The notes beneath the pieces were generated by a model, which did not search any database, was not told the DNA's origin, and saw only the letters and a list, made by a program, of their open reading frames with translations. The position numbers were made by a program, and so were the translations under genes. Shown here in pieces: positions 30,803 through 48,348 of a stretch of DNA of 64,000 nucleotides. The stretch is from Acidimicrobium ferrooxidans (lineage in GTDB: Bacteria > Actinomycetota > Geothermincolia > Fen-727 > Anoxymicrobiaceae), in the NCBI GenBank assembly GCA_020723485.1, contig DYIU01000001.1, forward strand, positions 757,850 through 821,849, in the 5' to 3' direction. Every line of letters starts with the position of its first letter. Within the stretch, counting starts at the first letter, position 1.

Positions 30803-31363
30803 ATGGCGCTTACGTACGGCACAGACGAGTGGGAGCAGGCATACGTAGCCGAGGTCGCGGAGAGGCAGAAGGCACCGCGGCCCTACATCGCTTTCAGCCC
30901 GGAGTGGATAGGGCTCTACGAGAAGGCTGTGCAGGAAGACGCCCTTTACAAGGAAGCCGCCGCGACCTGGGAGGGCTCGGTCGTGCTCCACGTGCTGGCG
31001 GCCCCCGAGGTCGGTATCGACGAGGACCTGTACCTGTTCATGGACCTGTGGCACGGCGACTGCCGTTCGATGCGGCTCGTTCCCAAGGAGGCCGGCGAGG
31101 CGGGCGACTTCGTCATCACCGGCTCGATGGAGCGCTGGCTTCAGGTGTCCAGGAAGCAGCTCGATACCGTCAAAGGGATGATGCAGGGCAAGCTCAAGCT
31201 CAAGGGCGACCTGCCGACCATCGTCCGCGCGGTGAAGGCGGCGTCGCGGCTCGTCGACATCGTCGCCGACATGGATTCCATCTATCCCGACGAACTGACC
31301 CCGGAGCAGATAGAGGAGCTCAGGGGCTGGATAGTGCCCCTCCGCGAGAAGTTCGGCGTCTGA
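30803..31363 (+). CDS. SCP2 (sterol-carrier-protein-2) domain protein
   Basis: ATG at 30803 with AAGGAGGG upstream; C-terminal SCP2-like motif (MMQGKLKLKGDLPTIVRAV). Confidence 0.65.
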   Translation: MALTYGTDEWEQAYVAEVAERQKAPRPYIAFSPEWIGLYEKAVQEDALYKEAAATWEGSVVLHVLAAPEVGIDEDLYLFMDLWHGDCRSMRLVPKEAGEAGDFVITGSMERWLQVSRKQLDTVKGMMQGKLKLKGDLPTIVRAVKAASRLVDIVADMDSIYPDELTPEQIEELRGWIVPLREKFGV

Positions 31364-31536
31364 ACACGACTTTTCAGACAGGCGGGGCATCCTCCAGGTG
31401 TCCCGCCTGTACAGCATCAGCGACCACACGGAGGCGCCCGGGGAAGGCCCCTCCGGCTGAGAACACGTGAGCCCCGTGCCGGCGTCCACGGGACGGGGGC
31501 CTCATAACGTCCCCGGCCAACAACGGGAGGTATGAG

Positions 31537-32700
31537 ATGGCTTACGACAGAGACCTTTCATTCGTCTACCGCAATCCCACCAAGCTGGTATTCGGTGAGA
31601 ACAGCGCGAAGGACGTCGGCATCGAGGTGGGCGAACTCGGGTGCAGCAAGGCGTTCCTGGTCACGGACCCCGGCCTCGTCGAGACCGGGCTGCCCGAGAT
31701 CATCGTAAAGGCGCTCGGCAATAAGTACGCCGGAACGTTCGACCAGTGCATACAGGACTGCGGGCTTCACATCATAAACGAGGCCGCGGAGGTGGCGAAG
31801 GCCGCCGGCGCGGACTGCCTCGTGAGCCTCGGTGGGGGCAGCACGATAGACACTGCCAAAGGGATGGCGATCCTCATCAAGGAGGGCGGCAGGATAGAGG
31901 ATTACGCGGGGCTACAGATGCTGACCCGCCCGCAGACGCCGCACATCGCCATTCCGACCACGGCGGGGACCGGCAGCGAGGTCACCTACGCCTTCGTGGT
32001 CAAGGACTGGGAAAAGAACCAGAAGCTCATCTTCGCCGACACGTTCGTCATACCGAACATCGGCATCCTCGACCCGACGCTCACGGAGGGCCTGCCGCCC
32101 GGCCTCACGGCCACCACCGGCATGGACGCCATGACCCACGCTGTGGAGGCCATCCACGCGCTGCAGGCCATGCCCATGTCCGATGCCATGGCGATGCATG
32201 CGATCAGGCTCATCATGGAGTACCTCCCCACCTGTGTCGAGAACGGCACCGACTTGTTCGCGCGCGGCCAGCAGCAGATAGCCGCGACGATGGCGGGCAT
32301 CGCCTTCGGCAATGCGCAGATCGGCATGGTGCACGCGATGGCGCACAGCGTAGGCGGCCTGTTCAAGGTGCCGCACGGGCTGGGGAACAGCATCCTGCTC
32401 CCGCACGTGATGCTCTACAACATGGACGAGTGCGCGGACCGCTACGCGATGGTGGCGGACGCCATGGGCCTGGACACCAAGGGCATGAGCGACCTTGAGG
32501 CCAGCGAGGCAGCGGCGAACGCGATATGGGACCTGACCAGGAAGATGGGCGTTCCCCAGAAGCTGAGCGAGGTAGGCGTGCCCGAGGACGGGCTCGACGC
32601 GGCGGCCGACCTGGCGCTCTCGGACGGCTCCATAGTGTACAACCCGAAGCTCATCTACGAGACGGACCAGATACTCGAGGTCTACAAGAAGGCCTACTAG
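31537..32700 (+). CDS. Iron-containing (group III) alcohol dehydrogenase
   Basis: GGGAGG RBS; Fe-ADH sequence (GGGSTIDTAKGMAI...; metal-ligand His in HAMAHSVGG and GLGNSILLPHV). Confidence 0.85.
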   Translation: MAYDRDLSFVYRNPTKLVFGENSAKDVGIEVGELGCSKAFLVTDPGLVETGLPEIIVKALGNKYAGTFDQCIQDCGLHIINEAAEVAKAAGADCLVSLGGGSTIDTAKGMAILIKEGGRIEDYAGLQMLTRPQTPHIAIPTTAGTGSEVTYAFVVKDWEKNQKLIFADTFVIPNIGILDPTLTEGLPPGLTATTGMDAMTHAVEAIHALQAMPMSDAMAMHAIRLIMEYLPTCVENGTDLFARGQQQIAATMAGIAFGNAQIGMVHAMAHSVGGLFKVPHGLGNSILLPHVMLYNMDECADRYAMVADAMGLDTKGMSDLEASEAAANAIWDLTRKMGVPQKLSEVGVPEDGLDAAADLALSDGSIVYNPKLIYETDQILEVYKKAY

Positions 32701-32744
32701 AGTCATTTCATCGACCACGCAGTAGATAGTTGGGAGGGTAAGAG

Positions 32745-33269
32745 ATGGTAACGTACCTGGTGGGCGCGCTGCTCGTAGCCCTGGGCGGAATCGCAATCGT
32801 CCTGATAATCGCGAGTTCCAAGGCGGAGGTGGGCTCAGGCGGAACGGGCGAGCTCGACGTCACGATGGCGGAGGGCGTAGAGGATAACGGCATGGCGGTG
32901 ATGCTGGCCGAGATGATAAAGACCAACCTCACCAACAAGCCCGAGAGGGTCAAGGACTTCAACAAGCTCAAGGGCACCGTCTGGATCACGGCCGAGGACG
33001 CCGACGTCGAGATGACGATGGATTTCAACAAGGGGAGCCTGACAGTGCGCGACGGGAAAGTCGGTAAGCCGATCCTCGCTATCTCGACAGACTCCGCGAC
33101 CCTCATGGACCTCGCCAACATAGACATAAAGTTCGGCATGCCCTATTACTTCGACGAGACGGGGATGATGGTCATCAAGAAGCTGCTCAAGAGGGAGCTC
33201 AAGATCAAGGGCCTGCTCACGCATACCATCGCCCTGACCTACATGACCAAGATAATGTCGGTGAAATAG
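32745..33269 (+). CDS. Membrane-anchored SCP2-like domain protein
   Basis: N-terminal TM helix (LVGALLVALGGIAIVLIIA) then SCP2-like region ending KRELKIKGLLTHTIAL. Confidence 0.6.
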   Translation: MVTYLVGALLVALGGIAIVLIIASSKAEVGSGGTGELDVTMAEGVEDNGMAVMLAEMIKTNLTNKPERVKDFNKLKGTVWITAEDADVEMTMDFNKGSLTVRDGKVGKPILAISTDSATLMDLANIDIKFGMPYYFDETGMMVIKKLLKRELKIKGLLTHTIALTYMTKIMSVK

Positions 33270-33339
33270 CAGCGGGCCGTCCCGCGTATGCGCGCGGGGA
33301 ACGGACCCGGCCGTAAGCCGAGAACGAGGGGGGACTCGA

Positions 33340-35196
33340 ATGTACGGCAATACCGGAAAGGTGCTCGACGTCGATCTGACGTCCGGGGAGATCAACGTTA
33401 TCGAGCTCGACGAGGATACTTACCGCCAGTACGTGGGGGGCACGGGCCTCGCCGCCAGGCTGCTTTACGACCACGGCGACCTCGAGGCGGGCCCTCTCGA
33501 CCCCGGGAACCTCTTCATCGTGGCCATCGGACCGATGCAGGACACCGGGATGTACGGCACCAGCCGGTTCTCGGTTGGCGCCCGCTCTCCTCTGACCGGT
33601 GTCTGGGGCCAGGCCAGCTGCGGCGGCGACTTCGGCCCGGAACTCAGGCGCTGCGGCTACGACGCGGTTATCTTCAGGGGCAAAGCCTCCGAGCCGGTCT
33701 ACCTTCTCATCGAAGAATCAGAGGCTTCACTCCAACCCGCCGGCGACCTCTGGGGCAAGGACACCTACGTGGTCGACGACGAGCTCAAGGCAAAGCACAG
33801 CAAGCAGCACAGGATAATGGTCATCGGCCCCGCCGGCGAGAACGGCGTGCTCTTCGGCAGCATCGCCAACAGCAAGGGCCACCATGCCGGCCGCTCGGGA
33901 ATGGGCACGGTCATGGGCTCGAAGAACCTCAAGGCGGTCTGCGCGAAGGGCAGCATGAAGCAGGAGTACGCCGACCCCGAGGGCCTCAAGTCTTTCTGGC
34001 AGGACACGGTCCGGCCGCAGATGGACGAGAGCATCTACTGCCAGACTGTCGGAGCTTTCGGAACGGCTGCCAACATGGAGATGAAGATGATCGAGGGCGA
34101 CGTGCCCACCAAGAACTTCCTGGTCGGCTCCTGGGAAGAGGGCCCCGAGACCCTGAGCGGCATCGCGATGGCGGACACTATCCTGACAGGCCGGGAGACC
34201 TGCCGCGGCTGCGGAATCCGCTGCAAGCGGGTGGTGAAGATAGAGGAAGGCCCGTACGCGATAGGCGAAGGCCCGGGGCCGGAGTACGAGACCATCGGCA
34301 CGTTCGGCACGATGCTCATGAACCCCAACCTCGAGGCCGTGGCGAAGGCCAACGACCTGTGCAACCGCCTGGGGATGGACACCATGACCTGCGGGTCGAC
34401 GATCGCCTGGGCCATGGACTGCTTCGACCGAGGCATGTTGAAGCCGGAGGACTGGGACGGCATAAAGCTGGAGTGGGGCGAGATAGATCCTGTCATCGAC
34501 CTCGTCCAGAAGATCGCCGTGCGCGAGGGCAAGCTCGGCGAGCTGCTCTCCAGGGGCTCCGCGAAAGCCGCCGCGGAGGTCGGCAACGGGAGCGAGGAGC
34601 TGCTGACGACCAGCAAAGGCCTCGAGTCTCCCATGCACGACCCGCGCTGCAACTGGGGCGACGGCCTGGCTTACGCTACCTCAGTCCGAGGCGCGTGCCA
34701 CGTCTCCAACCTCATGTTCCTGCTCGAGTGGGGGGCCCTGGACTTCCCGGAGATAGGGGTAGACCACATACTCGACCCGATGGGAACCGAGTACAAGGCG
34801 GACGGGGCCGCGAAGATGCACGATATCGGGTGCATCACGAACTCTGCGTGCTGGTGCCAGTTCCCCTCGCAGGCTCTCAGTCTCCCCCAGTGGGTCGAGG
34901 CGTTCAACCTGGTCACCGGCTGGGGTTGGGACATCGACGAGTTCATGAAGACCGGCGGCCGCATATGGTTCCTGCAGCGCTGCCTCGGTCACATCTGGGG
35001 CGCGACCGCTGAAGACGACGTCATGGGCGCCAGGAGCATGTACCCGACCGAGGACGGCATGATCGCGGGCTCGGTGCCCGACATGGACACCATGCTCAAG
35101 GAGTTCTACGAGCTGCGGGGCCTGGACTCCGACGGCAAGCCGACGGAAGAGACCCTGAAGGACTACGGCCTCGACTTCCTCATCGGCAAGATCTGA
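33340..35196 (+). CDS. aor: Aldehyde:ferredoxin oxidoreductase (tungsten-pterin AOR family)
   Basis: 618 aa; AOR N-terminal domain (MYGNTGKVLDVDLTSGEINVIELDEDTYRQYVGGTGLAARLLY) and conserved Cys-containing Fe-S/pterin region (CRGCGIRCKR). Confidence 0.85.
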   Translation: MYGNTGKVLDVDLTSGEINVIELDEDTYRQYVGGTGLAARLLYDHGDLEAGPLDPGNLFIVAIGPMQDTGMYGTSRFSVGARSPLTGVWGQASCGGDFGPELRRCGYDAVIFRGKASEPVYLLIEESEASLQPAGDLWGKDTYVVDDELKAKHSKQHRIMVIGPAGENGVLFGSIANSKGHHAGRSGMGTVMGSKNLKAVCAKGSMKQEYADPEGLKSFWQDTVRPQMDESIYCQTVGAFGTAANMEMKMIEGDVPTKNFLVGSWEEGPETLSGIAMADTILTGRETCRGCGIRCKRVVKIEEGPYAIGEGPGPEYETIGTFGTMLMNPNLEAVAKANDLCNRLGMDTMTCGSTIAWAMDCFDRGMLKPEDWDGIKLEWGEIDPVIDLVQKIAVREGKLGELLSRGSAKAAAEVGNGSEELLTTSKGLESPMHDPRCNWGDGLAYATSVRGACHVSNLMFLLEWGALDFPEIGVDHILDPMGTEYKADGAAKMHDIGCITNSACWCQFPSQALSLPQWVEAFNLVTGWGWDIDEFMKTGGRIWFLQRCLGHIWGATAEDDVMGARSMYPTEDGMIAGSVPDMDTMLKEFYELRGLDSDGKPTEETLKDYGLDFLIGKI

Positions 35197-35206
35197 GTAA
35201 TAACCT

Positions 35207-35286
35207 GGGGTCACGTCATATTTTATTACCGGCGGTCACGCGTGCCTCGATAATCGGCACCAGGTAATAAAATTAGACGTGACCCC
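35207..35286. repeat. 80-bp palindromic element (24-bp arms GGGGTCACGTCATATTTTATTACC, 32-nt loop) between convergent genes
   Basis: Left arm 35207-35230 and right arm 35263-35286 are reverse complements with one or two mismatches; shares the GGGGTCA-GTCA 5-prime core with the element family found further downstream. Confidence 0.7.
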
Positions 35287-35289
35287 ATC

Positions 35290-36282
35290 TTATGACACGC
35301 TGTAGTAAGCGGTCTCACCGCGGAGCTCGCTTCCCACCCTGCGTTCGCTCTCGAGTATGACCAGGTGGCCGAAGACCTCCCGCATGCCCAGGAAGATGTT
35401 CTCCACGGTGTTCTCGGCCTCGATGTCCGCAAGCATGTCGAAGGTGAGCTCGATGACCGTCTTCTCCCCGTCCCCGAGCGCGCCCTCGATGAAACGCAGT
35501 CGCTCATCGTGGTGTGCGAGCACCTCCTCGACCCGCCTGCTGAAGTCCTCGATGCAGTCACCGTGACCCGGGAGCGCCAGGCGGACGTCCAGGCCCCTCA
35601 GCTTCTCGAGGGACCTGATGTAGTCGGGAAGGCCGCTCCGCTGTTCGCTCTGCCATGGGGGGTACATGTCGGGGTTCGGCGTGATGGTGTTGAGCAGCAT
35701 GTCGCCGGTGAAAAGGAGCTTCTGCGCCCTAAGGTAGAGGCAGATGTGGTCTATCGAGTGGCCGGGCGTGTGGATTACCTCGAGGTCGAACGGTTCGCCC
35801 TCCAGTATGTCTCCTTCCTCTACAGGCCTGTCGACGGCCACCCCTTCCGCTACCACGTCCCACTGGGAACTGGTCAGCGCCGTTGTTTTCACCAGCTCGC
35901 GGTCCAGCCCCATCAGCGGCGACATCCCTATCAGGTACTCGCGCAGGCGGACGGCCTCCTCCCTGTAGCTTCCGACCGGCCCGAGCCCGAGACGGTGACA
36001 GACCACCTCCGCGCCGCCCTCGGCCTTGAACCGTGCGGCTAGGCCCATGTGGTCGGGGTGGTGATGCGTGACGATTATCCTCTGGATGGAGGCCGGCGGG
36101 TGACCAAGCTCCGATAGCGTGCGCGGGATGGTCTCGGTGACTTCTTCCATGATGGGGCCGGTGTCGATGAGCGTCACCGGCTCGCCCTCGATGAGGTACA
36201 GGTTGACGGGCTGGACCGTGTAAGGTATCTCGAAGTGGAGCTTCCGGATGCCACCAGTGATATCGACTATCTCACGCTTCAA
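35290..36282 (-). CDS. MBL-fold metallo-hydrolase
   Basis: TTG start at 36282 with GGAGG upstream; metallo-beta-lactamase motif IIVTHHHPDHMG. Confidence 0.8.
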   Translation of the reverse strand: MKREIVDITGGIRKLHFEIPYTVQPVNLYLIEGEPVTLIDTGPIMEEVTETIPRTLSELGHPPASIQRIIVTHHHPDHMGLAARFKAEGGAEVVCHRLGLGPVGSYREEAVRLREYLIGMSPLMGLDRELVKTTALTSSQWDVVAEGVAVDRPVEEGDILEGEPFDLEVIHTPGHSIDHICLYLRAQKLLFTGDMLLNTITPNPDMYPPWQSEQRSGLPDYIRSLEKLRGLDVRLALPGHGDCIEDFSRRVEEVLAHHDERLRFIEGALGDGEKTVIELTFDMLADIEAENTVENIFLGMREVFGHLVILESERRVGSELRGETAYYSVS

Positions 36283-36379: not shown

Positions 36380-36433
36380 TTGACACCATTGTCACATGCG
36401 GATAGAATCCCTGGCAAGTGAGTGCTCACTCAC
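36380..36433 (+). promoter_or_regulatory. Canonical sigma70-type promoter plus palindromic operator upstream of a TetR gene
   Basis: TTGACA (36380-36385), 17-nt spacer, TAGAAT (36403-36408); palindrome GTGAGTG-CT-CACTCAC (36418-36433) sits at the predicted transcription start. Confidence 0.6.
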
Positions 36434-36458
36434 CTGGGATGTGGAGGCGCAGGTGCCC

Positions 36459-37064
36459 ATGAAAGCGGAGCCGGAAACGGCACAGGAAACAGAATCGGCA
36501 AGGGGTCCCCGTTACAACGAAATCCTGACGGCCTCGATAGAGGTCTTCTCGAGGACGAACTACGAGAAGGCCACCACGGCACTGCTCGCTAAGGAAGCCG
36601 GGATCGCAGAGGGAACCCTGTACAGGTACTTCCCCACCAAGAAGGACCTCTTCCTCGAGTGCTTCCGCTACATAACGAACCAGATGGTCGAACGGTACAT
36701 CGATGTCTACAGGAGGGTCGGCCAGGACCCGCGCTCGTACCTGATAGAGGTCGCGAAGAGCTACTTCGAGTTCCTCCAGGAGAACCCGAGCATGCGGCTC
36801 TTCATGGCGTTCGTCCTCAACAACTCCTTCGACCAGGATTTCCGCGACGAGCTCGACAGGTTCGTGATGTTCAACGTCAACGCGACGGAGCGCATGCTCA
36901 GGCTCGCCATCGAGAAGGGGGAGATCCGCGATGACATCAACCCCAGGGTCGGGGCGTGGTTCTTCGTCGGCGGTTATTTCACCCTGATACTCATGTCCGA
37001 GCTGGACGCCGACGACTTCAAGCACCCCGACTTCATGGATGACCTCTTGAAGCTGTTCCTGTGA
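36459..37064 (+). CDS. TetR-family transcriptional regulator
   Basis: ATG at 36459 inside the longer ORF from 36396; helix-turn-helix region TTALLAKEAGIAEGTLYRYFPTKKDLF. Confidence 0.8.
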   Translation: MKAEPETAQETESARGPRYNEILTASIEVFSRTNYEKATTALLAKEAGIAEGTLYRYFPTKKDLFLECFRYITNQMVERYIDVYRRVGQDPRSYLIEVAKSYFEFLQENPSMRLFMAFVLNNSFDQDFRDELDRFVMFNVNATERMLRLAIEKGEIRDDINPRVGAWFFVGGYFTLILMSELDADDFKHPDFMDDLLKLFL

Positions 37065-37109
37065 GGTCCCACGGCCTGACGGGCGACCGGTCCGCATAGG
37101 GAGGATTGT

Positions 37110-38840: not shown

Positions 38841-38856
38841 AGCTGGAGACACATAG

Positions 38857-40101: not shown

Positions 40102-40161
40102 GCAGGGCAGTTAAATCGGGGTCAGGCCTGGATTCAAGGCCCCTCGAGTCAGGAGTCCGGA

Positions 40162-41415
40162 TTGAAGAAGTGGCCCCTACTGGTTGCGCTGGCCGCCGGC
40201 GAGGCGGCGAGGCGGTTGCTGCGCACCGCCCCGGGTCCCGTGTCGCCGAAGTACCCCGACTTCGTGCCGGACGACTACCCCCCGCTGCTGTTCGAGGTGC
40301 CGACGGGTGACGGCCTGGTACTGCGGGGCAAGAGGTACGAGAACCCGGGAGCGACGCCGCTCATACTGATGGCCGGGTTCAGCGGAAACGGGTTCAACTA
40401 CGACATCGCCTTCGAAGAGACCAATTTCGCCCTTCACATGGCCCGCCGGGGCTACGACGTGTGGGTGGCCAATTTCCGCGCGACGGGCAGGAACCCGTAC
40501 AGGAGCGATTCCGGGGATTACTCGCACCACATCCAGGACCTGTGCGTCTACGACGCCCCCGCGCTCGTGGCCGCGGTAACAGAGAGGACCGGGATGAAGC
40601 CGGTCATATTCGGGCACAGCATGGGTGGGGTCGTGTGCTACGGGTACCTGCAGGGAGCGGACTACGAGGTGGACGGCGCAGTGCGCCGCCTTGTCTCGGA
40701 TCCCGACCTCGCGCGTGAGCGGAACGAGGCGGTGGCCGGCGTGGTCTCCCTGGCCGGCCCGGCGAGCTTCTACTGGCCGAAGGACTCCAGGTACTACTGG
40801 CTGGTCGCGAGCCCGGTGTCGAGGCTGTTCCTGAGGGCTTTCAGGGCACTGCTCCTGCGCTTCTCGACCAACCCGCGGCCGGTGCCGGTCGAGGACTCGG
40901 TAGTCGGGCTCATCCGGCGCGCGCCGAGGCTCGCCTACCTGGTCCTGAGGGCGGGCTACTCCTTCTTCGCCAATCTCGAGAACATGGACCCGGAGATGCT
41001 CATGGAGTCGGCGGCGTCCGGGATGAGCGACGTATCCGCGAGCGAGCAGTGCCAGCTGGTGGAAGCGCTCCTGACCGGGGACCTCGTCTCGCGACGGGTC
41101 GACGGCGCCGACGGCGGAGAGCCCCACAACCTGACAAGGCACATGCACATGATAACCGCGCCCATACTCTTCGTCGCCGCCGAGCTCGATGCGGTGAACC
41201 CGGCGGTGCTCTACCGCGACGGCTTCGAGCAGGTGGGAAGCCGGACGAAGTATTTCAAGTGCTTCACCGGGTACGGCCACGTCGACCTGATCCAGGGATA
41301 CGGGATAGGAGACACCGTCATTCCATACGTGGCGCGCTGGCTGGAGAAGGTGCTCGGAGACCAGCCGGATTCAAAGGGAGCTGTCGATGGCGCTTATGAA
41401 AAGGTCGGGGAATAA
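40162..41415 (+). CDS. Alpha/beta-hydrolase fold protein
   Basis: TTG start with AGGAG RBS; nucleophile elbow GHSMGG; length and layout typical of alpha/beta hydrolases. Confidence 0.7.
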   Translation: MKKWPLLVALAAGEAARRLLRTAPGPVSPKYPDFVPDDYPPLLFEVPTGDGLVLRGKRYENPGATPLILMAGFSGNGFNYDIAFEETNFALHMARRGYDVWVANFRATGRNPYRSDSGDYSHHIQDLCVYDAPALVAAVTERTGMKPVIFGHSMGGVVCYGYLQGADYEVDGAVRRLVSDPDLARERNEAVAGVVSLAGPASFYWPKDSRYYWLVASPVSRLFLRAFRALLLRFSTNPRPVPVEDSVVGLIRRAPRLAYLVLRAGYSFFANLENMDPEMLMESAASGMSDVSASEQCQLVEALLTGDLVSRRVDGADGGEPHNLTRHMHMITAPILFVAAELDAVNPAVLYRDGFEQVGSRTKYFKCFTGYGHVDLIQGYGIGDTVIPYVARWLEKVLGDQPDSKGAVDGAYEKVGE

Positions 41416-42238
41416 GGAGGTCTCGGGGGCCTCGGTAGTGGTCACAGGGGCCGCGTCGGGCCTCGGCAGGGGGCTCGCCCTCGAGTTCGCACGCGCGGGG
41501 GCCGCGCGCGTCGCGCTGGTCGACGTCGACGAGGAAGGCCTCGCCGGGACGAAGGGGATGGTCGAGGCTATCGGCGCCCGGGCGGTCTCGCACCGGGTGG
41601 ACGTCGCGGACTGGGACCAGATGGCCGGGTTCGCATCGGAGCTGCTGGCGGATTGGGGCGCCGTGGACATCCTGGTGAACAATGCCGGCGTCGGCGTGGG
41701 AGGCGAGCTGAAGGACGTCGACATACGCGACTTCGACTGGATAGTCGGCATCAACCTGATGGGAGAGATATACGGGACCAGGCTCTTCCTCCCGCACATG
41801 ATCGAAAGGGGCTCCGGCCACATAGTGAACATCGCATCGCTCTCCGGGCTGGTGCTCCTGCCTTTCCACCTGCCTTACACCACCACCAAGTACGGCCTGA
41901 CCGGATTCTCGGAAGCGCTCTGGGCGGAGGCAAGGCGCTTCGGCGTCGGGGTGACCCTGGTGTGCCCCGGGGCTGTAAAGACGTCCATAATGCAGAACAC
42001 CCGCGTGCCGGACGTGACCGGCAGGCAGCAGCAGTTCGTCGAGAGGTTCCAGGCCCGGCTCGAGGAGAAGGGCATGGAGCCGGAAGACGTGGCGCGCAGG
42101 GTCGTTGGGGCCGTGGAGCGCAACAGGTTCCTGCTCCTCACCGGCCCGGAGTCGTTCATCATGTACTACTTCAAGCGACTGGCTCCCGGAGCATGGCGGA
42201 GGCTGATCGCCTCCTTGACCGATATAGCCTCGAGATAG
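41387..42238 (+). CDS. Short-chain dehydrogenase/reductase (SDR)
   Basis: Cofactor motif VVVTGAASGLGRGLA; NNAG motif (LVNNAGVGVGG); catalytic YxxxK region present. Confidence 0.8.
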   Translation: MALMKRSGNKEVSGASVVVTGAASGLGRGLALEFARAGAARVALVDVDEEGLAGTKGMVEAIGARAVSHRVDVADWDQMAGFASELLADWGAVDILVNNAGVGVGGELKDVDIRDFDWIVGINLMGEIYGTRLFLPHMIERGSGHIVNIASLSGLVLLPFHLPYTTTKYGLTGFSEALWAEARRFGVGVTLVCPGAVKTSIMQNTRVPDVTGRQQQFVERFQARLEEKGMEPEDVARRVVGAVERNRFLLLTGPESFIMYYFKRLAPGAWRRLIASLTDIASR

Positions 42239-42330
42239 ACCACCGGCGGGCCGTGTCGGACGGTCCGCCGCGATCGACGGAGCGGTACACGCGGGGCCCG
42301 GGTGCGGGGCCCGGCAGCAAGGGAGGGACC

Positions 42331-43833
42331 ATGGTACCTCGAGGAGCCAACCTGGCCGTGCTCGAGCGGGAGCCGACGCCGAAGGACATCATGTGCGGGC
42401 TCGACGCGTCGGGCGGAATGCCGCGGGCCATTCGCAAGGAGACCCTGGAAGTCCTTGCGCTTGCGAGGCGGTTCAACGAGCTGGTAGTGAGGCCCGGCGC
42501 GCTCGAGCTCGACCGCAGAAAACACGAGGAGCCCGACTACCTGCCCTGGGATTTCGTGCACGAGGCCAACAGCTGGGGCCTCTACACCATGTTCATCCCG
42601 AAGCTCTTCGGGGGACAGGGTTACAACCTGCCCGCGCTATCTTACATGGTGGAGGAGCTCGGCTCGGCGTGCACCGGCATGGCCAACCTGGTGGGAGTCC
42701 ACTACCTCGGCGTGGCGACGCTCTGTTCCAGCTGGAACATGCGCCTGATGAACAAGGTGATGCGCGACACCGTGGAGGGCGAGAAGACCGGCGAGCCCTG
42801 CCTTATCTCACTCGCGATAACGGAGCCGGGCGCCGGCACCGACGTAGAGGAGGTGGAGCTGGTCTCCAAGGCGACCGTGACCTGCCAGGCGAAGAAGGTA
42901 CCCGGCGGCTACGTGGTCAACGGCCGCAAGATATTCATCTCGAACGGCCATCTCTCCACCTGGCATATGCTCATCGCCTACGAGGACCTCGCCAGCCCGG
43001 AGACCAGCACGGTCATGCTCGCGGTGCGAAACGGCATGGAGGGATTCTCCTTCGGGCGCCAGGAGCGCAAGATGGGGCAGAAGGGCTGCCCTGCGAGCGA
43101 GCTCATCTTCGAGGACTGCTTCGTCCCCGACGAGAACGTCTGTTTCAGCGCCTCCGAGGCAGGGAGCATGAAGGGCTCGGCCGAGCGCGTCACGATGCAG
43201 GTCATCGATTCAGTGGTATCCACCTCGCGCGCCGGGGTGGCCGGCTTCGGGACAGGTGTCGCGCGAGGGGCCTACGAGGAGGCGCTGCGCTTCGCGAGCG
43301 AGACCGAGGTGGGCGGCAAGCTCCTCATCAACCACGAATGGGCGCAGTGCATACTCGCCGAGATGTACAAGAACGTAGCCGTTTCCCGGCTCACGTACGT
43401 GGAGACGAACAACGCCAACGGGATGTACGGGATGTTCAAGATCATGCAGTGGAAACCGGTCTACTACTACCTGAAGTTCGTGCCCCGGGCTGTAATCGAC
43501 AGGGTCGTCCAGCCGCTGTTGGACCTGCCCGCTATGACGTGGCTGTTCCGGAAGGTGATGTTCGAGTGGCAGAAGGACTCCGACTGGCAGTGCACCTCGG
43601 GCTGGGGCTCGCTCGCGAAGTTCACCGCGACGGACGCCGGGGTCAGGAACTGCCAGCTCGCCCTCGAGCTGATGGGGCGTGCCGGCCTGCGGCACGACCG
43701 GGGGGCGGAGAAGCACCTGCGCGACTCCAAGCTCCTGCAGATATACGAGGGAACCAACCAGCTCAACCGGCTGAACGTCTTCAAGTGCTTCATCGGGCGC
43801 CAGGTGCCCGAAGCGCAGGTCTTCGAGGATTAG
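42331..43833 (+). CDS. Acyl-CoA dehydrogenase family protein
   Basis: ATG at 42331 with GGGAGGG RBS, inside the longer ORF from 41653; ACAD middle and C-terminal regions (FISNGHLSTW..., LLQIYEGTNQLNRL). Confidence 0.8.
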   Translation: MVPRGANLAVLEREPTPKDIMCGLDASGGMPRAIRKETLEVLALARRFNELVVRPGALELDRRKHEEPDYLPWDFVHEANSWGLYTMFIPKLFGGQGYNLPALSYMVEELGSACTGMANLVGVHYLGVATLCSSWNMRLMNKVMRDTVEGEKTGEPCLISLAITEPGAGTDVEEVELVSKATVTCQAKKVPGGYVVNGRKIFISNGHLSTWHMLIAYEDLASPETSTVMLAVRNGMEGFSFGRQERKMGQKGCPASELIFEDCFVPDENVCFSASEAGSMKGSAERVTMQVIDSVVSTSRAGVAGFGTGVARGAYEEALRFASETEVGGKLLINHEWAQCILAEMYKNVAVSRLTYVETNNANGMYGMFKIMQWKPVYYYLKFVPRAVIDRVVQPLLDLPAMTWLFRKVMFEWQKDSDWQCTSGWGSLAKFTATDAGVRNCQLALELMGRAGLRHDRGAEKHLRDSKLLQIYEGTNQLNRLNVFKCFIGRQVPEAQVFED

Positions 43834-43845
43834 GGAGGGATAAAG

Positions 43846-44976
43846 ATGGGGTCCCGGATAGACGAGGAGCTCCGCATGCTCGAGGAGATGGCGCTCGACT
43901 TCGCGGAGCGTGAGCTGAAGGACAGGCGCGAGGAGTGCGACCACTACCCCTACGCGCCGCTCGAGGAGAACGTGCTCGAGAAGGCCTGCGACGTGGGGTT
44001 TTTCTGCATGACCGTACCCGAGGAGCTCGAGGGCGGGGCCATGGGCGTCGAGGCGCTGTCGCTCGTGCTGAAGGACATATCGCGAACCGACGCGAGCCTC
44101 GCGGGAGTGATCTTCACTACCGCGCTCGCCCAGGAGCTCGTGCTGGCCGCCGGGGCCGGGTCGGTGCTTGCGGGCGCGCCGGGCAACGGCAGCTGGCGCG
44201 AATCTCTCATCGCGTTCCCCTCCTTCGACGACGCCGCCGAGAACCTCGGACTGAGTGCCGAACGGGCCGGCGGGGCGGGTTACACCCTGACGGGGAAGGT
44301 GGAATACGTTGTCCTGGGCGGTCTCGCCTCCAGGGCCCTGCTGCCGGCGGCGGTTCCCGGCGTGGACGGCTACTCCTTCTTCCTGCTCGACCTCGACGCC
44401 GAGGGTGTCAGGAAGAGCGAGCCTGTGCTGAGCCTCGGCCTGCACTCGTGCCCGGCCGTGGACCTGGAGCTCGACGGCGCGAGGGCCGCGCTCGTCGGAG
44501 AGGAGGGGCTGGGCGCCAGCTATTTCACCGACTGCGCCGACAGGCTGAGCATACCCGCCGCGGCCATCTCAACCGGCATCATGAAGGGGTGCCTCGACGA
44601 GGCGCTGGAGTACTCGCGGCAGAGGTTCCAGGGGGGCAGGGAGATAGTCAACTGGTCGGAGCTCAGGCGCATTCTCGCGGACATGGCGACCGTCCAGGCG
44701 ACGGCCGACGCGCTGGTCGCATGCGCCTGCGTGCGGGCCGAGGCAGACGAGCCCGGGTGGCGCCTGCTGGCCAGGGCGACGGCCCTCCAGGTGCAGGCCG
44801 CCGCCTGCGACGTCACGACCGACGGCATACAGGTCCTCGGCGGGAACGGCTACATGGAGGACTACGGGCAGGAGAAGCGGTTCCGCGACGCCAAGCAGGT
44901 CCAGGCGCTGCTCGGCCTGGTGCCGATGAGAAAGCTCGAGTACATAACCCGTGTCATCGAAGGCGAACCCACTTGA
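43846..44976 (+). CDS. Acyl-CoA dehydrogenase-like protein (second paralogue)
   Basis: Follows the first ACAD by 12 bp; N-terminal ACAD-like helical domain; C-terminal region ends with a GGNGY-type motif (LGGNGYMEDYGQEKRFRDAK). Confidence 0.7.
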   Translation: MGSRIDEELRMLEEMALDFAERELKDRREECDHYPYAPLEENVLEKACDVGFFCMTVPEELEGGAMGVEALSLVLKDISRTDASLAGVIFTTALAQELVLAAGAGSVLAGAPGNGSWRESLIAFPSFDDAAENLGLSAERAGGAGYTLTGKVEYVVLGGLASRALLPAAVPGVDGYSFFLLDLDAEGVRKSEPVLSLGLHSCPAVDLELDGARAALVGEEGLGASYFTDCADRLSIPAAAISTGIMKGCLDEALEYSRQRFQGGREIVNWSELRRILADMATVQATADALVACACVRAEADEPGWRLLARATALQVQAAACDVTTDGIQVLGGNGYMEDYGQEKRFRDAKQVQALLGLVPMRKLEYITRVIEGEPT

Positions 44977-44986
44977 ACGCAAAATC

Positions 44987-45008
44987 GGGGTCAGGTCACT
45001 TTGTTGCG
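44987..45008. repeat. Solo 22-bp arm of the GGGGTCAGGTCA element family
   Basis: GGGGTCAGGTCACTTTGTTGCG, 11 bp after the ACAD stop; no partner arm within 100 bp. Confidence 0.7.
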
Positions 45009-45047
45009 TTTCCTGGACAGGATCGAAAGGACGGGCGGGAGGACACA

Positions 45048-45821
45048 ATGGATGACGAGCTGTCGACCGAGCTGAGAGAGATGGACGACGAGCTGGACGA
45101 GATGCTCGAGGGCGAGGACCTCGCGCCGCCGCAGGGGGACGACTGGAACCCGGTGGAGAAGGTGATACTCGAGCGGCGCAGCGTGCGTAAATACAAGGAC
45201 AAACAGGTCCCGGAGAGCGTGGTGCGCCGCATACTGGAAGCCGGCCGGTTCGCGCCGTCGGCCGGCAACTGCCAGCCCTGGAAGTTCATAGTCGTCAGAG
45301 ACCCGGAGTTGATAGACGAGATGGAGCGGGACGCCCGCCGCATGTGCAGGCTGTTCCGGTTCTTCATGGACTGGCGGACGAGTCCCCTCGGTTACTGGAT
45401 CCCCTGGCTGCTCGCGCAGACGTACATAAGGCTGCTGCACCACGAGCTGCACCCGATACCGATGGGCGCCGTGTTCGCCATCTCGGAGGGCAACCTGTCC
45501 CTCTTCCACGGAGCGCCGACCGTCGTCTTCATCCTCGAGGACTTCCGCGGTGTCAGCAAGCCGAAAGTGGACATAGGCTGCTGCGGCCAGAACATGGTCC
45601 TTGCGGCACACAGCATGGGCCTGGGGACCTGCTGGGTGGGCACCATCAAGCTGCTCACCTTCACCCCGAAGTGGAGAAGGCGCCTGGGAGTAAAGTTTCC
45701 TTACAAGTTCTGCGAGGCCGTCACCATAGGGTACCCGGTGGGGCACCCGGACGGGATGATACCCAGGGAGACCGTGGAGACAGACTGGTACGAGGACGGA
45801 CGCAAGCGGACCACCTTCTGA
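45048..45821 (+). CDS. Nitroreductase-family flavoprotein with acidic N-terminal extension
   Basis: ATG at 45048 with GGGAGG RBS; nitroreductase motif RRSVRKYKDKQVPESVVRRILEAGRFAPSAGNCQPWKFIVV; N-terminal ~30 aa very acidic. Confidence 0.75.
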   Translation: MDDELSTELREMDDELDEMLEGEDLAPPQGDDWNPVEKVILERRSVRKYKDKQVPESVVRRILEAGRFAPSAGNCQPWKFIVVRDPELIDEMERDARRMCRLFRFFMDWRTSPLGYWIPWLLAQTYIRLLHHELHPIPMGAVFAISEGNLSLFHGAPTVVFILEDFRGVSKPKVDIGCCGQNMVLAAHSMGLGTCWVGTIKLLTFTPKWRRRLGVKFPYKFCEAVTIGYPVGHPDGMIPRETVETDWYEDGRKRTTF

Positions 45822-45837
45822 GCCTTGGAGGCTGTAA

Positions 45838-46167
45838 ATGGGCGAATTCACCCTCTTCGAGATGCTGCGGATACCCACGTACGACAACGAGGACTACGCG
45901 ACCACCGGGCGGGTCACGATCGACCTCGAGAAGTGCAACGGCTGCGGGTTGTGCGCTAAGGTGTGCCCGGGCAAGGCGCTCTATGTCGCAGGCGAGGGGA
46001 AGGACCGGAAGGCGCACATGCACGCTGATTTCCCGCAGTGCATGTCCTGCAACGACTGCGCCGCGATATGCGAGCGCGACGCCATATTCGTGAGCGTCCC
46101 CTACTTCTTCCCGTTCTTCTTCAAGACGCAGGGCAAGGGCGAGTTCTCGCCCCCCCGCAAGTTCTAA
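45838..46167 (+). CDS. 4Fe-4S dicluster ferredoxin-domain protein
   Basis: Two cysteine clusters: CNGCGLCAKVCP and CMSCNDCAAICE. Confidence 0.7.
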   Translation: MGEFTLFEMLRIPTYDNEDYATTGRVTIDLEKCNGCGLCAKVCPGKALYVAGEGKDRKAHMHADFPQCMSCNDCAAICERDAIFVSVPYFFPFFFKTQGKGEFSPPRKF

Positions 46168-46176
46168 CGAAACACA

Positions 46177-46249
46177 GGGTCAGGTCACTTGTTGCATTTC
46201 TTACTCTGAACTTGGCGGAGGATACAAGTGCAACAAGTGACCTGACCCC
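46177..46249. repeat. Full palindromic element of the GGGGTCAGGTCA family (20/21-bp arms, 32-nt loop)
   Basis: Arms GGGTCAGGTCACTTGTTGCA (46177-46196) and TGCAACAAGTGACCTGACCCC (46229-46249) are reverse complements; lies in the 85-bp gap between the ferredoxin and SDR genes. Confidence 0.8.
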
Positions 46250-46267
46250 GATGTGCAGGGAGGTGCA

Positions 46268-47119
46268 ATGGGTTACAGCGACATCCCGCGCACGGCGGTC
46301 ATAACCGGGGCCGGCTCGGGCCTGGGGAGGGCGATGGCGCTTACCCTGGCCCGGGAGGGCTTCAGGGTCGGAGCGGCCGACATCGACCTCGAGAGCGCCC
46401 GGGAGACCGTGGAGATAGTGCGCCGCGCCGGCTCTACAGGTGAGGCGGTCTCCTGCGACGTACGGTCCCACGACGCAGTCCACGCGCTGGCCGACCATTT
46501 CTTCGACGAATGGGGAGAGGTAGGCATAGTGGCGAACAACGCGGGCGTAGCCGACGTCGGCCACGTCGGTGACATCCCCATGCACTGCTGGCAGCGGACT
46601 ATCGAGACCAGCCTCTGGGGAGTCATCTACGGGTGCCACGCGTTCCTCCCCCGCATGAAGGCCAGCGGCGCCGGCCACATCATCAACACTGCTTCGGCCG
46701 CCGGCTTCATGAACATGCCCGAGATGGCGCCCTACAATATCGTCAAGGCGGGGGTCATCTCGCTGTCCGAGACGCTCAGGGTCGAGCTGACCCCGTTCGG
46801 CGTCGGCGTGACCGTCCTGTGCCCCAGCTTCATCGCGACTAACCTCGACAGGACCGCGACTGTCACCGACCCGTGGCAGGGCGAGCTGGTGACCGCCCTC
46901 TTCCAGAACGCGAAGGTCACCCCCGGCCAGGTCGCGGAGGCCACGCTGAAGGCGGTCAAGCGCAACCGCCTCTACGTGGTCCCCCAGTTCACCCCCAGGT
47001 GGGGCTGGAGGTTGAAGAGGTTGAATCCCGGAGCTTTCACCGCCGGCTTCGCCGCGGCCTACAACGCCCCCTTCGGCAAGCGCGTTGCCATGTTCTTCGC
47101 CCGCCGGGGGATGATATAG
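46268..47119 (+). CDS. Short-chain dehydrogenase/reductase (SDR)
   Basis: ATG at 46268; cofactor motif AVITGAGSGLGRAMA; NNAG motif (VANNAGVADVG). Confidence 0.8.
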   Translation: MGYSDIPRTAVITGAGSGLGRAMALTLAREGFRVGAADIDLESARETVEIVRRAGSTGEAVSCDVRSHDAVHALADHFFDEWGEVGIVANNAGVADVGHVGDIPMHCWQRTIETSLWGVIYGCHAFLPRMKASGAGHIINTASAAGFMNMPEMAPYNIVKAGVISLSETLRVELTPFGVGVTVLCPSFIATNLDRTATVTDPWQGELVTALFQNAKVTPGQVAEATLKAVKRNRLYVVPQFTPRWGWRLKRLNPGAFTAGFAAAYNAPFGKRVAMFFARRGMI

Positions 47120-47242
47120 GCCGGGACCTATTGCATTCCCCGGGCGAACTGGGATAAAAAAGACCCGTCCCTTCACAAAGGGATTTCACCCTGACTGGAA
47201 GAAGTTAGGGGTGTCTGACGAGGTCTGCTTGAGGGTGACGCG

Positions 47243-47461
47243 ATGGTGGCGGAAAAGCGCGCTACACGCATGCTCATACTCATCCCGGTTTTTGCGGTGC
47301 TGCTCGCTCTTCTCTTCTCTATGACAGGTCTCAACATGGGCATGACGGTCGCCGAGAGGCCGACGGCTCCCAGGGCCCTGATCCACGCCGCCGTCCTTTT
47401 CTCTGACGCCCTCTACATTACCGCCACCGGCGCCCAGGCGCTCGTGGCCCGTCGACAGTAA
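47243..47461 (+). CDS. Small hypothetical membrane protein (72 aa)
   Basis: ATG preceded by GAGGGTGA; one predicted TM helix (MLILIPVFAVLLALLFSMTGL); no homology recognised. Confidence 0.3.
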   Translation: MVAEKRATRMLILIPVFAVLLALLFSMTGLNMGMTVAERPTAPRALIHAAVLFSDALYITATGAQALVARRQ

Positions 47462-47568
47462 TCGCGGCGGCCCCCCTCAAAACGTGCCGGAACCCATTAC
47501 CTCGCACCGTGTGCGCCCGCGCCGCGACGGCTATTATATAGGCGACCGCAAAGAACAAGGGGGCTGCC

Positions 47569-48348
47569 ATGGACGAGGTGCTGGTCGAGAAGAGCGGGAA
47601 GGTCTGCACGGTCATCATCAACCGGCCCGAGGTGCGCAACTGCGTGAACCGGCCGACCGCCGAGCGGCTCTTCGAGGCGTTCAAGGAGTTCGACTCCGAC
47701 GATTCACTGTGCGCCGCGGTGCTCTGGGGCCAGGGCGGGTACTTCTGTGCCGGGGCTGACCTCAAGGCGCTGGCGAGCGGTGACCTCAACCTGATTAATC
47801 CCCTGAACGAGGACATGAGCCTCTGCGCCCCGATGGGCCCGACGCGGCTGCTCCTCTCAAAGCCGGTCATAGCGGCCGTCGCCGGCTACGCCGTAGCCGG
47901 TGGGATCGAGCTCGCCTGCTGGTGCGACCTCCGAATCGTTGAGGAGGACGCGGTGTTCGGGGTCTTCGACCGCAGGTTCGGCGTCCCCCTCATCGACGGG
48001 GGCACCCAGCGGCTCCCGCGGCTGGTCGGCCTGAGCCGCGCGCTCGACATGATACTGACAGGCCGGGCGGTGGGAGCCCGTGAGGCGCTCGAATTCGGGC
48101 TTGCGAACAGGGTGGTCGGCAAAGGGGAAGCCAGGCTGGAGGCGGAGAAGCTGGCCGCCGAGCTCGCGGAGTTTCCACAGTCGGGGCTGCGGGGCGACCG
48201 GAAAGCGGCCTATCTCGGGTTCGGGCTCGAGCTCGACAGGGCGATGGAACTCGAGTACAGGGTCGGCATCGAGGCTATCACCAGCGGCGAGGCGGTCACG
48301 GGAGCCACCGAGTTCACCGGCGGCAAGGGAAAGCACGGGCAGTTCTGA
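47569..48348 (+). CDS. Enoyl-CoA hydratase/isomerase (crotonase family)
   Basis: Crotonase oxyanion-hole region (FCAGADLKAL) and conserved catalytic stretch (VAGYAVAGGIELACWCDLRI). Confidence 0.85.
   Translation: MDEVLVEKSGKVCTVIINRPEVRNCVNRPTAERLFEAFKEFDSDDSLCAAVLWGQGGYFCAGADLKALASGDLNLINPLNEDMSLCAPMGPTRLLLSKPVIAAVAGYAVAGGIELACWCDLRIVEEDAVFGVFDRRFGVPLIDGGTQRLPRLVGLSRALDMILTGRAVGAREALEFGLANRVVGKGEARLEAEKLAAELAEFPQSGLRGDRKAAYLGFGLELDRAMELEYRVGIEAITSGEAVTGATEFTGGKGKHGQF

Follow-up and report, generated by a model that had tools for sequence, protein, structure and literature searches.

To our knowledge, all known routes for the high-potential electrons of acyl-CoA oxidation in strict anaerobes run via electron-transferring flavoprotein (ETF), and the disposal of these electrons is central to syntrophy, sulfate reduction and subsurface carbon turnover. 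In dimers of acyl-CoA dehydrogenases (ACADs), the FAD is held by both chains. ACAD pairs of the alpha/beta type are typical of steroid and other bulky CoA esters (PMC8399759, PMC6678751). The locus described here lies in a 64,000-nt stretch of DNA assigned to Acidimicrobium ferrooxidans (GTDB family Anoxymicrobiaceae; GenBank assembly GCA_020723485.1, contig DYIU01000001.1, forward-strand positions 757,850 to 821,849), referred to as the window, and it joins such an ACAD pair to a nitroreductase-fold protein (NTR) and a ferredoxin (FD). It consists of two separately conserved units: Module A (30803-35196), with genes for two SCP2-domain proteins, an iron-type alcohol dehydrogenase (Fe-ADH) and an aldehyde:ferredoxin oxidoreductase (AOR), and Module B (36380-48348), a same-strand array that opens with a TetR gene and is built around a six-gene core. 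It is proposed, with moderate confidence, that Module A would convert an alcohol to an acid, that Module B would degrade the acid as its CoA ester in a beta-oxidation-type sequence, and that NTR and FD would serve as the dedicated redox partner of the ACAD. This proposal builds on the gene identities, the conservation of synteny, the complementary loss of motifs in the two ACADs, a conserved operator and the fusion of the ferredoxin to the acyl-CoA synthetase.

The window has 60-67% G+C, which leaves raw lists of open reading frames (ORFs) crowded with shadow ORFs; genes were called from the codon-position pattern of G+C and then scanned with Pfam. Relatives were compared by tblastn of the window proteins against 80-91 fetched loci and through the gene tables of nine annotated loci (cited below by L numbers). 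Exact proteins for several genes are on record (NCBI contig of 1,099,391 bp), which fixed the starts of SCP2a, ACADS and NTR among others. All the gene classes named in a preliminary description of this DNA were found by these calls between 30.8 and 48.3 kb, about where it had placed them, and two genes were missing from its list, a minus-strand metallo-beta-lactamase (MBL)-fold gene (35290-36282) and a membrane ORF of 72 amino acids (aa) at 47243-47461. The arrangement is not due to chance, since the full window order from AdnAB through ACADL repeats in L089, Module B repeats in L083, L084 and L088, and about 20 loci of three phyla contain the six-gene core. The core genes of Module B, with the private insertion of the larger ACAD, are as follows:

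37110-38840, plus strand: AMP-forming acyl-CoA synthetase (ACS), core; Pfam AMP-binding and AMP-binding_C
38857-40101, plus strand: BbsB-like thiolase (THL) of the SCP2-thiolase superfamily, core; Pfam Thiolase_C_1
42331-43833, plus strand: ACADL, 500-aa catalytic acyl-CoA dehydrogenase subunit; Pfam ACAD N, M and C domains
43402-43605, plus strand: private 68-aa insertion of ACADL, three helices in the AlphaFold2 model
43846-44976, plus strand: ACADS, 376-aa non-catalytic ACAD-fold partner; no Acyl-CoA_dh_M match in Pfam
45048-45821, plus strand: NTR, FMN protein of the nitroreductase fold; acidic N-terminus, lid insertion; Pfam Nitroreductase; exact 257-aa protein on record
45838-46167, plus strand: FD, 109-aa 2x[4Fe-4S] ferredoxin; Pfam Fer4_7/Fer4; two CxxCxxCxxxC motifs

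These six genes stay together through several gene orders in Actinomycetota (L001-L003, L083, L084, L088, L089), Desulfobacterota (L010, L013-L015, L086) and Desulfomonilia (L087). The order is TetR-ACS-THL-ACADL-ACADS-NTR-FD-SDR-x-SDR (SDR, short-chain dehydrogenase) in the actinobacterial loci L001-L003, L084, L088 and L089, and THL-(TetR)-NTR-FD-ACS-ACADL-ACADS-(SDR) in the Desulfobacterota and Desulfomonilia loci. The closest relative, L083, carries the MBL gene through the hydratase gene in the same order as the window, with ACADL 85% identical, and in L014 the cassette stands alone between unrelated genes. One metagenome-assembled genome (MAG) holds more divergent paralogous copies (L001 and L004). 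Additionally, among the 120 best homologues each of ACADL and NTR, at least 20 apparently share a contig (contigs matched by size). In three Desulfobacterota loci, ferredoxin and synthetase form one protein of 708-718 aa, with the ferredoxin at the N-terminus (L081 7831-9957, L086 6851-8977 and L014 12652-14808), an architecture for which we know of no rationale. Conservation that withstands rearrangement, together with this gene fusion, provides strong evidence that the six proteins work together. The components are all of known kinds, but their combination is not a known one; no description of this cassette, or of the sister cassette considered below, was found in the literature searched.

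The preliminary description had counted two ACADs; both genes are present, but they encode one catalytic and one non-catalytic subunit. ACADL keeps the glutamate of its YEGT motif (FEGT in L003) as well as TEPxAGTD, with a degenerate signature 2 (QxxGGxG type; 19 aligned sequences, window included). In ACADS, the position of the catalytic Glu is taken by Leu, Met or Phe (ALLGL), signature 1 is gone (AFPSFxNP) and signature 2, QxLGGxGYMxDxGQEKRFRDA, is intact, in all 20 aligned sequences (the window and 19 orthologues). This complementary loss of motifs, the pattern by which the alpha2beta2 ACADs of steroid and dicarboxylate catabolism are defined, predicts that ACADL and ACADS form one heteromeric enzyme of alpha2beta2-like type. 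The two genes are 12 nt apart, and the pair is adjacent in all syntenic loci except that of Desulfosudis oleivorans Hxd3 (L081). For ACADL, a Logan contig record has the 500-aa form and the NCBI record a 546-aa call, and the 120 homologues listed are all at least 59% identical and nearly all about 500 aa long. The AlphaFold2 model (pLDDT, the predicted local distance difference test, 84.6) shows the 68-aa insertion as three extra helices, and this insertion has matches in just 10 of 1.84 billion representative proteins. The fold is otherwise ordinary, its best matches being MCAD-type ACADs and cyclohexenecarboxyl-CoA dehydrogenase (25% identity). The best NCBIfam match of both ACADs is the acryloyl-CoA reductase AcrC, far under its cut-off.

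In NTR, the motifs RRSxR and SAGNxQPW are invariant, and a fold search returned uncharacterised nitroreductases of anaerobes and iodotyrosine deiodinase, with no other look-alikes. FD always comes directly after NTR, the two genes being adjacent or overlapping in L083-L088, and neither the ETF nor the DUF35 Pfam families occur in the scanned window genes or in the nine annotated relative loci. NTR and FD are read as the redox partner of the ACAD because they are always found together with the synthetase, the thiolase and the ACAD pair. As a tentative extension, ACADL, ACADS, NTR and FD might form one complex, an ETF-independent, ferredoxin-coupled acyl-CoA dehydrogenase/enoyl-CoA reductase used by strict anaerobes of several phyla, with a parallel version in the sister cassette that would employ DUF2148 iron-sulfur proteins. 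If so, it would be a new wiring of beta-oxidation electrons in anaerobes. A two-component monooxygenase, with an ACAD-fold oxygenase and a flavin reductase, was also considered and is unlikely, given the dehydrogenase Glu of ACADL and the strict-anaerobe hosts and neighbours (AOR, ferredoxins).

The thiolase had been taken for an SCPx-type enzyme, which in the strict sense it is not. It carries HDAT where SCP2-thiolases have the catalytic HDCF motif, and its nearest solved relative is BbsB (PDB 7pxp_C, 6.6e-58), followed by a zebrafish-type SCP2-thiolase (6hsj, 1.6e-55). Cys87, His358, Cys236 and the HDA of HDAT (Ala310) are invariant in 86 of 86 homologues, the T being S in two. The closest relatives of the thiolase (73-64% identity) come from MAGs of Candidatus Solincola, Candidatus Geothermincola and other Geothermincolia/Actinomycetota, and the next closest from Desulfobacterales, Syntrophales and Spirochaetota. 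The synthetase is generic by NCBIfam and PDB comparison and is 52-84% identical in syntenic loci. The other features of Module B and of the DNA that precedes it are as follows:

35290-36282, minus strand: metallo-beta-lactamase-fold hydrolase, divergent from the TetR gene; Pfam Lactamase_B 5e-29
36380-36440, plus strand: promoter-like site TTGACA-17-TAGAAT (36380-36408), then a 34-bp palindrome (36407-36440), in the MBL-TetR spacer
36459-37064, plus strand: TetR-family repressor; Pfam TetR_N and TetR_C_11; the ORF opens at 36396
40162-41415, plus strand: alpha/beta hydrolase, weakly lipase-like; Pfam Hydrolase_4/Abhydrolase_1
41387-42238, plus strand: SDR1, short-chain dehydrogenase; Pfam adh_short; 29-nt overlap with the hydrolase gene
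46253-47119, plus strand: SDR2, second short-chain dehydrogenase; Pfam adh_short; kept after FD in the Actinomycetota loci
47243-47461, plus strand: 72-aa ORF, one membrane helix predicted, located between SDR2 and the hydratase gene; no Pfam match
47569-48348, plus strand: EchA5-type (mycobacterial) enoyl-CoA hydratase, at the end of the array; Pfam ECH_1

Module B comprises 12 co-oriented genes with gaps of -29 to 123 nt, preceded by a promoter that agrees with the consensus at 11 of 12 positions and by the palindrome, which is presumed from its sequence to be the TetR operator. The -35 box and the core AGTGAGnnCTCACT are kept upstream of TetR in L001, L083, L084 and L089, with a variant in L088, and the spacers have otherwise diverged. 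The TetR start is likely 36459, downstream of promoter and operator. The protein has a TetR_N helix-turn-helix, and the palindrome overlaps its own promoter, as befits a TetR repressor; its homologues measure 192-216 aa and its best NCBIfam match is the Bacillus-type FadR (1.4e-19; 70.6 versus 200 bits, under the cut-off). Module B would thus be a single operon that its own TetR represses at a palindromic operator overlapping a strong promoter, and the earlier view of a CoA-dependent, TetR-controlled catabolic locus of beta-oxidation type in an anaerobe is supported. That the host is anaerobic is a reasonable inference, since the locus encodes an AOR, an Fe-ADH and ferredoxins.

All five classes of a beta-oxidation set (synthetase, ACAD, enoyl-CoA hydratase, 3-hydroxyacyl-CoA dehydrogenase and thiolase) are found in the window, though the cassette shared across phyla leaves out the hydratase, and neither SDR can be assigned to the 3-hydroxyacyl-CoA dehydrogenase role. 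The hydratase scores 374.6 against the cut-off of 273 for PRK08259 (NCBIfam), matches the EchA5 entries of the PDB at 1e-84 to 1e-89 and is 89% identical in L083. For SDR1, by its sequence a candidate 3-hydroxyacyl-CoA dehydrogenase, NCBIfam gives the best match with the SDR half of PRK05855, a family of hydrolase-SDR fusions. The alpha/beta hydrolase, with weak similarity to gastric and lysosomal acid lipases (1e-7 to 1e-4), was found outside the window in L083 alone, is absent from L089, L084 and L088, and is a lineage-specific insertion in the operon; SDR1 and the MBL-fold protein are likewise lineage-specific additions. The MBL-fold gene is kept at the same position in L083 and L089, and its product, which reaches no NCBIfam family at cut-off, is possibly a thioesterase or esterase. 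The 72-aa ORF has a 71-aa counterpart at the same position in L083 (14818-15033). Between the two SDR genes of L084 (14680-15756) and L088 (13791-14867), which represent more distant Actinomycetota forms of the operon, lies a conserved 358-aa protein without a Pfam family that starts MKQCAECGFP...; the idea that it is a diverged form of the window hydrolase was rejected, as the two are unrelated.

Module A and the gene that adjoins it are composed as follows:

29331-30707, minus strand: FAD protein of the geranylgeranyl-reductase family, divergent from SCP2a; Pfam FAD_binding_3/DAO; a neighbouring gene
30803-31363, plus strand: SCP2a, 186-aa protein with an SCP2 lipid-carrier domain; Pfam SCP2 8.7e-11; exact 186-aa protein on record
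31537-32700, plus strand: iron-type (group III) alcohol dehydrogenase; Pfam Fe-ADH and ADH_Fe_C
32745-33269, plus strand: SCP2b, second SCP2-domain protein; Pfam SCP2 7.8e-05
33340-35196, plus strand: aldehyde:ferredoxin oxidoreductase of the canonical AOR clade; full-length Pfam AFOR_N and AFOR_C

SCP2a, for which a search found 2026 homologues (those listed are 183-204 aa), adjoins Fe-ADH in L089, L090 and L091. Right after its gene, within the 173-nt gap before Fe-ADH, there is an inverted repeat with a 12-bp stem (31378-31410; ACAGGCGGGGCA...TGTCCCGCCTGT), which could be a terminator or attenuator inside Module A. Fe-ADH retains the GGGSTID NAD motif and the D/H metal ligands and reaches no NCBIfam equivalog at cut-off. 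SCP2b is 74%, 65% and 59% identical to the ORFs after Fe-ADH in L089, L090 and L091, respectively; its N-terminal hydrophobic stretch may reflect an over-extended ORF, as the orthologues begin at about residue 28-40. In L090 the block SCP2, Fe-ADH and SCP2b sits at the contig end. The AOR matches the PDB entries 9mqx, 9g7j and 1aor at 1e-104 to 1e-107 with its cluster cysteines in place (Cys288/291/295 and Cys498); its class is assigned from sequence, from which tungsten and molybdenum cannot be told apart. An AOR at least 90% identical to it apparently lies on the contig of L083 (size match, 51,332 bp). The neighbouring FAD protein scores 118.5 bits for TIGR02032 against an NCBIfam cut-off of 158.8, and its gene is kept in the same position in L089, where the 408-aa homologue suggests that the true start is probably later.

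In the proposed sequence of events, for which we infer the reaction order, the direction, the coupling of the modules and the role of NTR and FD, the two SCP2 carriers of Module A would hold a poorly soluble alcohol, Fe-ADH (NAD(P)-dependent) would convert it to the aldehyde, and AOR would oxidise the aldehyde to the acid with ferredoxin as acceptor. An alcohol dehydrogenase and AOR front end that delivers acids had also been suggested in the preliminary description and is plausible. The synthetase of Module B would then form the CoA ester, the heteromeric ACAD, with one active site per heterodimer, would introduce the 2,3 double bond, the EchA5-type hydratase and an SDR would yield the 3-oxoacyl-CoA, and the BbsB-like thiolase would cleave it, while NTR and the ferredoxin would act as dedicated redox partner of the ACAD. 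Several observations weigh against this scheme. The palindrome occurs once in the window, with no second copy and none upstream of Module A, so Module A is not visibly under the repressor of Module B. In L091, a Deltaproteobacteria MAG, AOR, SCP2, Fe-ADH and SCP2b are found with no beta-oxidation genes nearby, and in L083 a large sensor kinase stands in place of Module A, the two modules not adjoining. Apart from the generic hydratase family PRK08259, curated NCBIfam equivalog cut-offs were reached by no core protein, so that substrate and direction are read from context alone, and the hydratase itself is absent from the Desulfobacterota cassettes and falls outside the cross-phylum core. The complete genome of Hxd3 (L081) has NTR, the ferredoxin-synthetase fusion and ACADL, with no ACADS or thiolase nearby, and this reduced set weakens the reading of an obligate heteromer and of obligate beta-oxidation. 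Additionally, electrons of acyl-CoA (about -10 mV) would have to move thermodynamically uphill to reach a low-potential ferredoxin, and NTR-FD may therefore act on the substrate or supply electrons instead of accepting them.

The first group of these points bears on whether the modules belong together at all. The earlier claim of one island is not supported, as Module A is conserved separately, lacks the operator of Module B and does not adjoin Module B in the closest relative. It is possible, though on the unlikely side, that the modules are functionally unrelated neighbours and that Module A is a general unit for alcohol/aldehyde detoxification or fermentation: it stands alone in L091, the modules have no operator in common, the sensor kinase of L083 lies between the corresponding positions, and a convergent MBL gene separates the modules in the window. 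Against this, the modules directly adjoin in the window and in L089, with proteins just 68-78% identical, they apparently share a contig in two further MAGs (those behind L083 and L090, contigs matched by size), and an SCP2 protein is also present in the sister cassette; in some anaerobic actinobacteria of Geothermincolia type, the two are side by side. The uphill electron step is avoided if NTR-FD is not the redox partner of the ACAD and instead acts as a ferredoxin-driven reductase on a C=C bond (like a 2,4-dienoyl-CoA reductase), a halogen or a nitro/N-oxide group of the substrate, preparing it for ordinary beta-oxidation. Reductive dehalogenases such as iodotyrosine deiodinase, one of the fold matches, belong to the nitroreductase fold, C=C reductases belong to the family as well (the C-terminal domain of FbiB is among the sequence-family matches), and reduced ferredoxin is a strong donor that the neighbouring AOR makes. 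This role is doubtful, however, since NTR and FD co-vary with the ACAD pair through gene rearrangements, the ferredoxin is fused to the synthetase and not to NTR, and Hxd3 retains exactly NTR, the ferredoxin-synthetase and ACADL, which resembles one enzymatic unit and not an optional auxiliary step. A reductive direction, that is, reverse beta-oxidation with a condensing thiolase, the ACAD pair as ferredoxin-driven enoyl-CoA reductase, and AOR plus ADH turning acids into alcohols as an electron sink, would fit the match of both ACADs to AcrC, the suitability of ferredoxin as a donor and the reversibility of AOR and Fe-ADH, which reduce acids in other anaerobes. It is considered very unlikely: uptake and catabolism are what an acyl-CoA synthetase of the ATP-to-AMP kind and a FadR-like TetR typically signal, sulfate reducers and syntrophs that oxidise fatty acids or hydrocarbons commonly carry the cassette, and no dedicated CoA transferase or thioesterase for product release is present unless the MBL-fold protein is one.

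Regarding the substrate, the preliminary description had proposed alpha- and beta-oxidation of methyl-branched, isoprenoid-derived or sterol-side-chain alcohols and acids, the alpha-oxidation being attributed to lyases dependent on thiamine pyrophosphate (TPP) and encoded downstream:

56164-58032: first TPP gene; acetolactate-synthase-type models best, none at cut-off
58014-59570, plus strand: second TPP gene (518 aa), with a 19-nt overlap with the first; acetolactate-synthase-type models best, none at cut-off

Their identity as 2-hydroxyacyl-CoA lyases was rejected, which leaves alpha-oxidation unsupported: with the lyase model the score is 190 bits where the cut-off is 600, the proteins are acetolactate-synthase-like, and L083 has no synteny there, a different gene lying in this interval between the kinase and the DUF6790 gene. 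The C-terminal TPP-binding domain, 151 positions long, is truncated in the second protein, which matches only positions 31-82 and could be a partner subunit, either degenerate or regulatory. The proposal of a bulky substrate fared better, as it fits the ACAD pair, the SCP2/START neighbours and the weakly lipase-like hydrolase, while its methyl-branched and SCPx basis was not borne out. A START protein adjoins the cassette in L086, and this, with the in-operon SCP2 of the sister cassette, makes a hydrophobic substrate likely and an accidental presence of the SCP2 proteins of the window less likely. A bulky or hydrophobic acid of lipid-like or aryl-alkyl type is the probable substrate. As to the aryl side of this range, a phenylpropanoid-type aryl-alkanoate could undergo side-chain beta-oxidation, the thiolase releasing an aroyl-CoA and acetyl-CoA, and ADH and AOR acting on aromatic alcohols and aldehydes; BbsB releases benzoyl-CoA, the synthetase is about equally close to anthranilate-, feruloyl- and benzoate-CoA ligases and to fatty-acid ligases, and the cassette is common in Desulfobacterales. 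In Desulfococcus multivorans, 3-phenylpropanoate induces five-gene operons (ligase, ACAD, two dehydrogenases and thiolase) of comparable gene content (PMC5109826). This substrate class is nonetheless improbable, since the SCP2 and START lipid-carrier neighbours favour more hydrophobic compounds, benzoyl-CoA pathway genes appear in none of the locus gene tables, and the thiolase reaches 229 of 750 bits for the BbsB equivalog without a BbsA/DUF35 partner. Just as little probability, if not slightly less, is given to a single island devoted to isoprenoid or sterol compounds. Alpha/beta-type ACAD pairs do occur with steroid and bulky CoA esters, SCP2 proteins are present, the synthetase is distantly similar to the FadD17 and CasI models, and the geranylgeranyl-reductase-family neighbour is kept in L089, although that sole hint scores under its cut-off. 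Neither the window nor its relatives hold a racemase, an acyl-CoA carboxylase, a MaoC/DUF35 hydratase or an Ltp2/Sal-type aldolase; the TPP enzymes fail as lyases and are not syntenic; the thiolase has HDAT and not HDCF, the hydratase is of the generic EchA5 type, and the IpdE2 and PimD models score far under their cut-offs.

The sequence preferred here, oxidation of an alcohol by Module A and beta-oxidation-type degradation by Module B with NTR-FD as redox partner, has consequences beyond this locus. If NTR and FD are redox partners, they would represent an unrecognised electron route by which lipid- and hydrocarbon-derived acids are degraded in sediments and hot springs; if their role is instead to modify the substrate, they would mark an unknown substrate class that many anaerobes can use. 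The SCP2/Fe-ADH/SCP2/AOR block, on the other hand, would provide biocatalysis with a ready-made unit of interest for the oxidation (or production) of alcohols of poor solubility.

Around the two modules, the flanks of the window carry an AdnAB-type helicase-nuclease pair, DUF5719/TIG surface proteins and an L,D-transpeptidase; a scan of the window for Rfam families and tRNAs gave no match. The DUF5719 proteins are large surface proteins typical of the lineage: a 2014-aa protein with a DUF5719 region and nine IPT/TIG repeats (7933-13977, plus strand) and a second DUF5719 protein (61962-63470, minus strand). A PIN-domain toxin gene (18505-18939, plus strand) is preceded by an overlapping 80-aa ORF (18273-18515), so that 18273-18939 is probably a VapBC-type toxin-antitoxin pair, and the adjacent stretch of about 1.5 kb (16800-18270) has no ORF with a coding G+C pattern and no Rfam or tRNA match. 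Downstream of the hydratase gene, positions 48458-53094 hold a 917-aa CARDB/DUF11 surface protein (minus strand), a second TetR (51703-52326) and a DUF975 protein, which stand between the hydratase and a pair (53339-55526) formed by a nitronate-monooxygenase/FabK-like flavoprotein (TIGR03151, 241 versus a cut-off of 453 bits) and a histidine kinase. This FabK-like/kinase pair is kept downstream of the operon in L083, where it directly follows the hydratase, and a link to the operon is possible.

One of the systems to which the locus can be compared is the sister cassette, SCP2 (138 aa)-DUF2148-DUF2148-synthetase-single 406-aa ACAD-thiolase-SDR, found in about 45 loci, mainly of Desulfobacterota and also of Spirochaetota and Chloroflexota MAGs (e.g., L022 5103-12070; others include L017, L020, L023-L027, L029, L032-L034, L036-L040, L042-L045, L047-L053, L055, L057, L058, L061, L063, L067, L068, L070-L072, L076 and L078-L080). 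It shares with the window the thiolase family (53-57% identity), the synthetase, ACAD and SDR, two iron-sulfur-domain proteins and SCP2, but it has a single 406-aa ACAD where the window has an alpha/beta pair, and DUF2148 proteins in place of NTR and ferredoxin. Iron-sulfur proteins are thus regular companions of this thiolase family, joined in the sister cassette by an in-operon SCP2. Cultured isolates such as Desulfosarcina widdelii PP31 have a member of the thiolase family within a cluster that agrees in content with the sister cassette. Nothing was found in the literature on DUF2148, and kinship between DUF2148 and NTR was rejected (profile comparison probability below 1%; a local motif resemblance is not evidence). 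For the thiolase, the peroxisomal SCPx/SCP2-thiolase type 1 shows the same Thiolase_C_1 domain, Cys nucleophile and GHP histidine, with SCP2 proteins nearby in the window; unlike this type, the window enzyme and its homologues have Ala at the catalytic cysteine of HDCF, and the SCP2 domains form proteins of their own, encoded at a distance of 6-8 kb in Module A. The benzoylsuccinyl-CoA thiolase BbsAB of anaerobic toluene degradation is similar in having HDA(F/T) and not HDCF (HDAF in BbsB), the Cys nucleophile, the GHP histidine and the MC/CC cysteine, and differs in its DUF35/zinc-ribbon partner BbsA, of which there is none in the scanned window genes or the L081-L091 gene tables, in its score (229.3 versus 750 bits for the window thiolase with the BbsB equivalog) and in its bbs-type CoA transferase, which the locus lacks.

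The AOR is like those of Pyrococcus furiosus and Aromatoleum aromaticum in its full-length AFOR_N and AFOR_C domains, its similarity to 1aor (about 1e-105) and its identical cluster cysteines. Unlike them, it has no AorA/AorC-type subunits adjoining it and belongs to a conserved four-gene block with Fe-ADH and two SCP2 proteins. The ACAD pair resembles the alpha2beta2 ACADs (mycobacterial ChsE1-ChsE2, ChsE4-ChsE5 and IpdE1-IpdE2, PimCD of Rhodopseudomonas and the dicarboxylate ACADs) in that two adjacent, co-oriented genes encode one subunit with the catalytic Glu and the substrate/flavin motif and another with only the motif that binds, from the partner side, the ADP part of FAD. It falls outside these subfamilies, however (IpdE2 34.3 versus 450 bits; PimD_small 26.8 versus 652.7 bits), and is set apart by the private 68-aa insertion of ACADL, by the constant linkage to NTR and ferredoxin and by its strict-anaerobe hosts. 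With the butyryl-CoA dehydrogenase-EtfAB complex and the caffeyl-CoA reductase CarCDE, the locus has in common an ACAD-fold enzyme that is genetically tied, in strict anaerobes, to flavoprotein and ferredoxin chemistry; judged from the genes alone, the partner in the window is not an ETF but a nitroreductase-fold FMN protein with a separate 2[4Fe-4S] ferredoxin.

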